From contig CAWHDR010000001.1 of NCBI GenBank assembly GCA_963828165.1, forward strand, positions 800,001-864,000: a DNA stretch of 64,000 nucleotides. The letters run 5' to 3'. Below are positions 13,949 to 14,035 of the stretch, piece by piece. Source of the DNA: an uncultured Chloroflexia bacterium. Lineage in GTDB: Bacteria; Chloroflexota; Limnocylindria; Limnocylindrales; CSP1-4. A model generated the notes under the pieces. The model was not told the origin of the DNA and made no database searches. It worked only from the letters and a program-made list of their open reading frames with translations. Numbering within the stretch: the first letter of the stretch is position 1; each line of letters opens with the position of its first letter. A program made the position numbers and the translations under genes.

Positions 13949-14035
13949 TCAGGGACCCCAGCGCCGGCCGAATTCGATCAGGGTCGGAGCAACGACCATC
14001 AGGTAGAAGACCAGCGACGAGCGCAACCGCGCCAT
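13949..14035 (-). CDS. 28-aa hydrophobic small peptide MARLRSSLVFYLMVVAPTLIEFGRRWGP
   Basis: Hand-translated; GGAGG RBS 6 nt upstream; same GRRWGP-stop end as 1299-1400. Confidence 0.8.
   Translation of the reverse strand: MARLRSSLVFYLMVVAPTLIEFGRRWGP

Follow-up and report, generated by a model that had tools for sequence, protein, structure and literature searches.

Between an ABC importer operon and msrB in the genome of an uncultured Chloroflexia bacterium lies an open reading frame (ORF) of only 28 codons, and the question that it raises is whether so small a frame is a gene and, if so, what its product would do. The frame lies on the minus strand of a stretch of 64,000 nucleotides (nt), here called the window, which corresponds to G000:C1:800001-864000 of genome G000 (3.31 Mb, 70% G+C, 6 contigs, 87.7% complete). 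A sequence-only reading of the window had described it as the second, orphan copy of a peptide gene ending in GRRWGP, and had taken both copies as precursors of one mature signal. We refer to these two small ORFs (sORFs) as copy 1 and copy 2. Our favoured interpretation, to which we give a probability of about 0.55, is that copy 2 encodes a small membrane-resident peptide, independently transcribed and translated, of a family tied to control by cyclic di-GMP (c-di-GMP). The elements concerned are:

13949-14035, minus strand: sORF copy 2, 28 codons plus TGA, MARLRSSLVFYLMVVAPTLIEFGRRWGP; ATG at 14035-14033, TGA at 13951-13949
14042-14046, minus strand: Shine-Dalgarno (SD) sequence GGAGG, 6 nt ahead of the copy 2 ATG
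1299-1400, plus strand: sORF copy 1 (type B, see below), 33 codons plus TGA, MNTFKNQTFRIVMFLSVLASSSLVLMAGRRWGP

The 28-codon frame with its GGAGG ribosome binding site is present exactly as it had been read (GGAGG at 14046-14042), and the tails of copies 1 and 2 differ at two synonymous sites, the codons being those given in that reading. The degenerate pattern G-R-R-W-G-P-stop occurs twice in the window and not once in any of 100 dinucleotide-preserving shuffles. A six-frame scan of the whole 3.31-Mb genome for [GA][RK][RK]W, followed by 0-3 residues and a stop, returned 71 matches, and copies 1 and 2 are the only ones among them that come after a hydrophobic helix, the list having been judged by eye.

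All genomes used for comparison are metagenome-assembled and many are incomplete; absence below means not found among those searched. A search with the peptide in 101 genomes of the genus gave matches at E≤10 in 16 genomes, strong ones in four: G000 itself, G094 (100% identity), G066 (79%) and G014 (73%). The weak matches are not noise. Seven of them (G044, G099, G100, G091, G071 and two loci in G063) are short ORFs that begin a convergent approach to an ABC permease gene, lying just beyond its end; those of G044, G063, G100, G091 and G071 share a contig with the copy 1 of their genome, at a distance of 11-12 kb. Further syntenic copies, in G024, G069, G076, G106, G086 and G088, came from a profile built on ten orthologs, and the leader pattern described below added one more, in G010. 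Overall, copy 2 orthologs are convergent with the end of the ABC permease and 10.7-13 kb from copy 1, and the ORF is intact in 16 genomes of the genus, i.e. in all those just named except G086. In G063 the locus is found on two contigs (L042, L051), near-identical and with peptides differing at one residue, which reflects either a duplication or the assembly of two strains.

The intact orthologs encode 27-31 residues, start with ATG or GTG after GGAGG, and differ in length by whole codons only; examples are MSQRIRQSLVALLPVVAALVGDLARRW, MSQRIREWIVMLVPVVAIVFMEFARRWH, MARLRRPLIALAIAYLPTIALIVDYGRRWNP and VRRFIDRLVAVATYLMVVAVAFAGSSEGMKW. At the SD site GGCGGAGG/GGTGGAGG is retained in 13/13 aligned orthologs. 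Between G000 and G094 the ORF shows three differences, all synonymous and all in the tail. The ratio pN/pS is 0.64 in frame compared to 0.89 and 1.45 in the shifted frames, and for copy 1 (28 sequences) 0.50 compared to 0.99 and 1.81; these are uncorrected Nei-Gojobori values summed over all pairs, and as the alignments are short and the sequences related, they are best taken qualitatively. The retention of start, SD and frame, the whole-codon length changes and the lowest pN/pS being the in-frame one make copy 2 a real gene: judged from the alignments, it is a coding sequence under purifying selection. This agrees with the earlier suggestion that selection acts on the peptide and that the two copies are not a DNA repeat, and copy 2 is probably translated.

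The conserved element could also be something other than a protein gene, namely an RNA (the 3' part of a leader, or a small RNA) or a short regulatory ORF whose product does not matter. Such an explanation would draw on the tiny size of the ORF and on the leader, which is conserved more strongly in sequence than the ORF body. We consider it highly improbable: start, SD and an in-frame stop 0-2 codons after R-R-W are kept in 16 genomes despite the nucleotide divergence of the ORF, its length changes by whole codons, and the constraint is lowest in the other two frames. Furthermore, the hydrophobic character and the C-terminal motif are common to paralogs with unrelated flanks, and no gene on the same strand lies downstream that a leader ORF could regulate. 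A longer version of the ORF, 38 codons with a GTG start (13949-14065), was rejected, the added in-frame 5' part being without protein conservation in the orthologs.

The residues M1, R3, R5, A16 and R-R-W are invariant among copy 2 orthologs, and the basic N-terminus reads M-x-R-[LI]-R. R-R-W is invariant in 10/10 aligned copy 2 orthologs, and R-W in 22/22 copy 1 orthologs. After W, copy 2 orthologs carry GP, DP, DL, NP, H, G or nothing. The exact tail DNA pattern, searched in 41 relatives, gave one true ortholog and one chance match within a coding region, and since only one true ortholog was found, the GP tail is not a conserved unit. The proposal that all copies yield the same mature signal, GRRWGP, therefore fails: the peptides end RRW, RRWH, RRWDP, RRWDL, RRWNP or RRWG, whereas [DE]-x-[GA]-R-R-W is kept. 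As deduced from the alignments, the conserved unit starts with a basic N-terminus, continues with one hydrophobic helix and closes with [DE]-x-[GA]-R-R-W and 0-2 residues.

The same unit connects copy 2 to a larger family, the consensus of which, over 76 loci in public genomes, ends ...ALVLEAG(R/Q/K/H)RW followed by 0-2 residues. The family contains two types of sORF, type A and type B, which stand first and second, respectively, where they occur in tandem. Comparison of profiles (hhalign) related copy 1 to the type A profile with 91.8% probability over 28 columns, and copy 2 to copy 1 with 92.6% probability over the last 12 columns. Copy 2 has the features by which the type B sORFs are described: 27-34 residues, a basic N-terminus, one helix, [GA]-x-R-W and a stop 0-2 codons later. 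The copy 1 orthologs have a mean column identity of 80%, with F9, R10, L15, S16, L18, A19, S21, L23, V24, A27, R30 and W31 invariant.

The residue before R-R-W co-varies between copies 1 and 2, with 13/13 genomes concordant. Both copies have G in seven genomes (G000, G094, G066, G014, G044, G099, G088) and A in six (G071, G100, G024, G069, G106, G086). This concordance perhaps reflects a single event on one shared branch; a common partner or gene conversion could also account for it.

Much of this layout would also suit a secreted or processed signalling peptide, in which the N-terminus and core serve as export signal, [GA]RRW(xx) is released, and several differently regulated genes supply it. 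The layout resembles that of a signal peptide, with a basic n-region, a hydrophobic core, small residues and a short conserved C-terminus. For copy 2, by the general rules of Sec signals, n and h regions are present and a candidate site (L/F)-x-(A/G) lies directly before R-R. A conserved acidic residue immediately precedes the tail, and several copies occur with unrelated control regions. The short pheromone precursors of Firmicutes are laid out in a comparable way, and the likeness to those of the Phr and SHP kinds lies in the short sORF and in the acidic residue ahead of a short conserved C-terminus. However, pheromones usually diversify, their mature part varying between strains or species, whereas R-R-W shows little or no variation in at least 19 genera and the GP that would belong to the released part is variable. 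The hydrophobic core of copy 1 is highly conserved, unlike a mere export signal, and two arginines directly follow the core, a position which in Sec export disfavours translocation of that end. Unlike the Phr and SHP genes, the sORF has no receptor gene beside it; no protease or exporter gene is adjacent either, and the binding protein of the neighbouring importer is of the SBP_bac_8/1/6 type, not of a peptide-type family. A secreted signal thus appears improbable to us.

The profile of copy 1 matched in 90/301 genomes of the order (one of the 90, G301, being an unpublished genome), comprising 89/258 in family f1 and 0/42 in a small-genome sister family, and the copy 1 family is present in 19/39 genera. 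The copy 1 peptide itself was found in 44/101 genus genomes at E<1e-4. All 76 copy 1-family loci in public contigs are from metagenome-assembled genomes; the contigs are named as Chloroflexota, mostly 'Candidatus Limnocylindrales / Limnocylindria' or 'uncultured Chloroflexia', with a few labelled otherwise. By these searches the sORF family does not extend beyond one family of Limnocylindrales-like Chloroflexota. The copy 2 profile matched in 8/19 genus genomes and in G000; outside the genus, among 301 family genomes, it gave two chance-level matches only (E 0.003 and 0.008). Within the genomes sampled, copy 2 is thus narrower than copy 1: a stable, syntenic, genus-restricted paralog.

Neither the copy 1 nor the copy 2 peptide matched any Pfam-A or NCBIfam family at E≤10. 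The ESM Atlas contains the copy 1 sequence, and the nearest clusters (434, 266 and 52 members) are called 'hypothetical protein' and have no Pfam assignment. A search of a library of 1.84 billion representatives gave 102 cluster representatives at E≤1e-3, and in about 96 of the 102 the match extends to within 0-3 residues of the C-terminal end of the called protein. The exceptions look like read-through or truncated calls (P0005, P0024, P0054) or low-complexity multi-stretch matches (P0093, P0104), and the longer calls that were examined (106-198 aa) look like over-extended starts.

The connection to c-di-GMP comes from a third, more diverged paralog outside the window, copy 3, located about 330 nt downstream of a second gene for DUF5317, a membrane protein of which one gene also precedes copy 1:

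G000:C1 about 748253-748343 (L191 1254-1343), minus strand: sORF copy 3, GTG start, 30 codons, after GAAGGGGA; reads MKSTLARLSWALTVLASLALTVGAGMRWSW
G000:C1:748379-748454, minus strand: c-di-GMP-I aptamer of copy 3, between DUF5317 and copy 3
659-1192 of the window, plus strand: DUF5317 membrane-protein gene, Pfam PF17248, E 8.1e-27, directly upstream of copy 1

The copy 3 aptamer passes RF03167 (c-di-GMP-I-GGC; 61.9 bits against a gathering score of 59, E 3.3e-14) and also the canonical RF01051 (56.9 bits against 35). RF03167 is the model of the 'GGC' variant, for which a possibly altered specificity has been proposed, and c-di-GMP is the putative ligand of the copy 3 aptamer. Downstream of copy 3 only a remnant of a type B sORF is left, 16 codons long and ending ...IDAGHRWELITTF. 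With at least three paralogs in G000, and tandem copies in relatives, the supposition of a dispersed multi-copy family was correct. So was that of differing control regions: unrelated conserved motifs lie upstream of copies 1 and 2, and a riboswitch precedes copy 3.

The arrangement at copy 3 recurs in other genomes. Among 20 further loci of the family, 14 have an aptamer on the sORF strand (15 matches, 11 of them reaching the gathering score and the other four scoring 45.8-57.7 bits), and L206 has two aptamer-sORF units in tandem. Tandem sORFs behind the aptamer, type A first and type B second, were found in 9/20 loci:

L193, L194, L200, L202, L203, L206, L207, L210, L211: type A and type B sORFs in tandem, a few bases apart

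The type A consensus is MKANLARFTWALTLLASMALTIGAGMRW, ending ...GAGxRW, and the tandem type B peptides end ...LVLEAG(Q/H/K)RW. We also built our own covariance model from 17 aptamers. By this model the aptamer is present in 10/76 public loci, 130-220 nt ahead of the sORF, and in 1/46 genus loci. Nine of the ten public aptamer loci adjoin DUF5317, seven of them with DUF5317 directly upstream on the same strand. Copy 3 and many other family members thus stand directly behind an aptamer, as do genes of a c-di-GMP-I (GEMM-I) regulon. The genome has 17 GGDEF matches, and a GGDEF-EAL gene lies 20 nt upstream of the DUF5317 gene associated with copy 3.

Only one other c-di-GMP-I aptamer was found in the genome, at G000:C1:703477-703554 on the plus strand (L213 1501-1578; RF03167 54.2 bits, RF01051 57.3 bits). 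It precedes a protein gene with one N-terminal hydrophobic segment, a long Pro/Thr-rich region and no Pfam match.

A full-length DUF5317 adjoins the sORF in 57/76 loci, upstream and on the same strand in 55 of them. G000 has three copies by Pfam genome search: the one in the window, a second at G000:C1:748670-749092 (minus strand), and a third fused to a transporter of the MFS type. DUF5317 itself is widespread (64/201 sampled Chloroflexota, also the Thermus and Thermotoga controls), and by a crude pattern a sORF of this kind was found downstream of it in 0/26 loci from other Chloroflexota families. A predicted complex of the copy 1 peptide and DUF5317, based on alignments, scored 0.01 and 0.12 against a mark of 0.32, in a prediction made without controls.

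The AlphaFold2 model of DUF5317 is confident (pLDDT 87, pTM 0.83), and Foldseek found nothing like it in the PDB at E≤0.001, the best match having E 2.8. In the alignment of the window's DUF5317 the residues N92, N99, G101, M103, P104, D136 and FSxGD154 are invariant. A role as a GxGD-type intramembrane protease, considered from D136 and FSxGD154, was not supported, there being no PDB match at the threshold just given. Open frames of 620-750 residues contain DUF5317 in several relatives of the same class.

Copy 2 has its own conserved control region, which suggests independent transcription:

14119-14149, minus strand: promoter-like motif TAAGTCGCAGCTAAGCG-N8-GATACT, the first three bases being the msrB stop codon
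14074-14117, minus strand: leader hairpin 1, 5/14 predicted pairs with compensatory changes
14047-14063, minus strand: leader hairpin 2, GCCGGCC-CCC-GGCCGGC, abutting the SD; RNAalifold columns 76-79/93-96, kept in 10-13/13

The motif TAAGTCGCAGCTAAGCG-N8-GATACT is retained in 11/11 aligned copy 2 orthologs regardless of the upstream gene. The loop of hairpin 1 (16-17 nt) is nearly invariant as GGGCACTCCT, with GGGCATTCCT in G076. The motif and loop patterns combined were found in 7/301 family genomes, all of genus g1 and once in each, and a reversed control pattern in 0. A simple sigma-70 promoter scan and a T-run terminator scan of the copy 1 and copy 2 loci yielded 0 sites. In G000 only, the loop of hairpin 1 has an alternative pairing with the SD region, the single-sequence minimum free energy fold joining CGGGCACUCC and GGAGGUGCCCG; with z = -1.42 this fold is not significant against shuffles.

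Part of the copy 2 motif, the 14-mer GTCGCAGCTAAGCG (14133-14150, minus strand), has one further exact occurrence in the genome, at G000:C1:1832540 (minus strand). There, too, a -10-like hexamer (TAAGGT) follows after 8 nt, and the gene downstream is ComEA-like, named so by eye from its SLBB / helix-hairpin-helix-like sequence. GTCGCAGCTAAGCG may be a shared promoter type or a regulator site.

Searches for the c-di-GMP-I aptamer at copy 2 were negative: RF01051 and RF03167 gave no match at E≤10 in 13800-14300, and our own covariance model gave 0 in the whole window and 0/17 at the copy 2 loci among the 46 genus loci. Among known RNA families, the best match around copies 1 and 2 had E 0.76. 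The absence of an aptamer sets copy 2 apart from a c-di-GMP-I regulon.

If copy 2 is indeed a small membrane-resident peptide of a c-di-GMP-linked family, it would insert as a single helix, with the terminal arginines and [DE]-x-[GA]-R-R-W at the membrane-water boundary. The peptides of the family would remain in the cytoplasmic membrane, where they would act singly, together or through a membrane partner, perhaps DUF5317, as part of a c-di-GMP-controlled envelope programme. The recurrent unit of the family is a DUF5317 gene, followed by a c-di-GMP-I aptamer and one or two tandem sORFs. Copy 2 would be a genus-specific extra source of a type-B-like peptide, with an input that is independent of the riboswitch and passes through the promoter-like motif and the two-hairpin leader. 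Among known proteins, KdpF, AcrZ and MgtS are small, span the membrane once and modulate larger membrane proteins. The sORFs resemble these in having about 30 residues, one helix, charged ends and an SD of their own, and copies 1 and 3 are located beside the gene of a multi-pass membrane protein (DUF5317). They differ in lacking any Pfam/NCBIfam relation at E≤10, in being multi-copy, in having a riboswitch on one copy and in occurring in one Chloroflexota family.

Several observations weigh against this interpretation. With about 16-17 residues, a proline among them, the hydrophobic stretch of copy 2 is short, and the expectation that it inserts into the membrane is drawn from composition only. 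The similarity to the family is limited to the last 12 columns; the comparison of copy 2 with the type A profile gave a probability of 6.7%, which is not significant. The pN/pS values of both copies, uncorrected and from short alignments of related sequences, are just moderately below 1. The link of copy 2 to c-di-GMP runs through homology with its paralogs, because it has neither an aptamer nor a DUF5317 neighbour. The 20 sequencing runs that match positions 5001-15000 of the window are all DNA, each with a small share, and none is an RNA run. About two thirds of the f1 genomes sampled, many of them incomplete, gave no match to the copy 1 family, so the sORF family is not essential. Finally, in the ortholog of G086 (L156) PPPFASCSWSV stands in place of the hydrophobic part and no stop follows R-R-W. 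The G086 frame continues beyond R-R-W into the antisense of the permease gene; this copy is either decayed or the result of an assembly error.

A more elaborate form of the family's role, which we put forward as tentative and rather doubtful, is a two-peptide module controlled by c-di-GMP. Type A and type B peptides would be made together from one riboswitch-gated transcript and assemble in the membrane, possibly with DUF5317, and the assembly would switch the behaviour of the envelope as a gate, a pore or an adaptor in signalling. Other signals would feed type B peptide into it through copies 1 and 2, which stand alone, and the G/A co-variation would reflect a shared binding partner.

The neighbourhood of copy 2 bears on another kind of membrane peptide, a toxic one:

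14147-14572, minus strand: msrB (SelR domain), Pfam PF01641, E 5e-52; 5' neighbour of copy 2
13033-13941, plus strand: last ABC permease gene, convergent with copy 2; permease-like C-terminus read from the sequence

A Pfam scan of the flanks bears out the position between the ABC operon and msrB. The importer operon, on the plus strand, comprises an ATPase with TOBE_2, an SBP_bac_8/1/6 binding protein, a BPD_transp_1 permease and the last permease, which ends at 13941 and has no Pfam match at E≤0.001. No processing, export, protease or receptor gene adjoins copy 2 (the neighbours in the Pfam scan being MsrB and the ABC genes), and no DUF5317 gene lies beside it, msrB and the convergent ABC permease being its flanks. 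The term orphan is apt in that copy 2 is missing both marks of other copies, a DUF5317 neighbour and a riboswitch, but not for what is a stable syntenic gene of the genus. msrB adjoins copy 2 only in the closest relatives (G094, G066 and G014); a different upstream gene is found at more distant orthologous loci. The stop codons of copy 2 and the convergent permease are 7 nt apart in G000, and in G094 and G066 they abut in the palindrome TGATCA. A search for terminator-like sites between these convergent stops or close to them (13946-13951 and the orthologs) was negative. The transcripts of copy 2 and of the ABC operon would be mutually antisense unless transcription stops at once.

A membrane-damaging peptide (type I toxin, holin or leaderless bacteriocin), silenced by its leader or by antisense and depolarising the membrane of the producer or of a competitor, would fit several of these features. 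The peptides have fewer than 35 residues, a single helix and a C-terminus that is basic and aromatic, the form looked for in small hydrophobic toxin ORFs; copies are multiple and sometimes in tandem, and the taxonomic range is narrow. A leader hairpin abuts the SD, and the alternative fold of G000 occludes it. A mere 0-7 nt separate the sORF stop from the end of the convergent ABC operon, and read-through of either would be antisense to the other. The likeness to the Hok, Ldr and Fst toxins thus extends to the hydrophobic helix, the C-terminus, the tandem copies, the structured leader and the intergenic position. We nevertheless regard a toxin as unlikely. Inheritance looks vertical, with synteny stable across the whole family, and the sORFs have riboswitch control, both unlike type I toxins. 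No antitoxin RNA, antisense RNA gene or conserved opposite-strand promoter was seen in the alignments, beyond which no dedicated search was made. Moreover, immunity and export genes are lacking nearby, and the z-score of the leader fold is not significant.

Annotation routinely overlooks small membrane proteins, and the study of their roles is expanding. To our knowledge, this Chloroflexota lineage is represented only by metagenome-assembled genomes. By the searches made here, a sORF family with an arrangement of one riboswitch and two micro-ORFs, together with riboswitch-free paralogs, is new: a literature search of titles and abstracts found no paper on c-di-GMP riboswitches ahead of tandem mini-ORFs, none on DUF5317 and none on small proteins of Limnocylindria. 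One genome holds three differently controlled paralogs, and a cyclic-dinucleotide riboswitch would directly gate one or two of them. If the peptides are c-di-GMP effectors, their small size and directness would be unusual for an output of c-di-GMP signalling, and they would give a first functional context to DUF5317, a widespread family of unknown function. Around 100 'hypothetical protein' clusters, whose N-termini have been wrongly extended, could be re-annotated as a single family of peptides of about 30 residues.

The copy 1 locus is self-contained and has conserved flanks of its own:

1201-1243, plus strand: upstream conserved block GTACCGATGGCCTATGGC and -10-like TAGGTT, from an alignment of 24 orthologous loci
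1419-1478, plus strand: two hairpins 3' of copy 1, the second terminator-like and followed by TCGATTCC

The block GTACCGATGGCCTATGGC occupies 1201-1218 and is separated by a spacer of about 19 nt from TAGGTT (1238-1243), after which come a purine-rich SD and the copy 1 ORF. This 18-mer is unique in the genome even when 2 mismatches are allowed. It contains a direct repeat, ATGGCC-T-ATGGC, beside a GGTACC palindrome, and resembles a site bound by a regulator more than it does a -35 box. The region 3' of copy 1 folds with -48.6 kcal/mol (z = -3.25; 0/200 shuffles fold as well), and its hairpin stems vary in sequence among the orthologs while complementarity, judged by eye, is kept.

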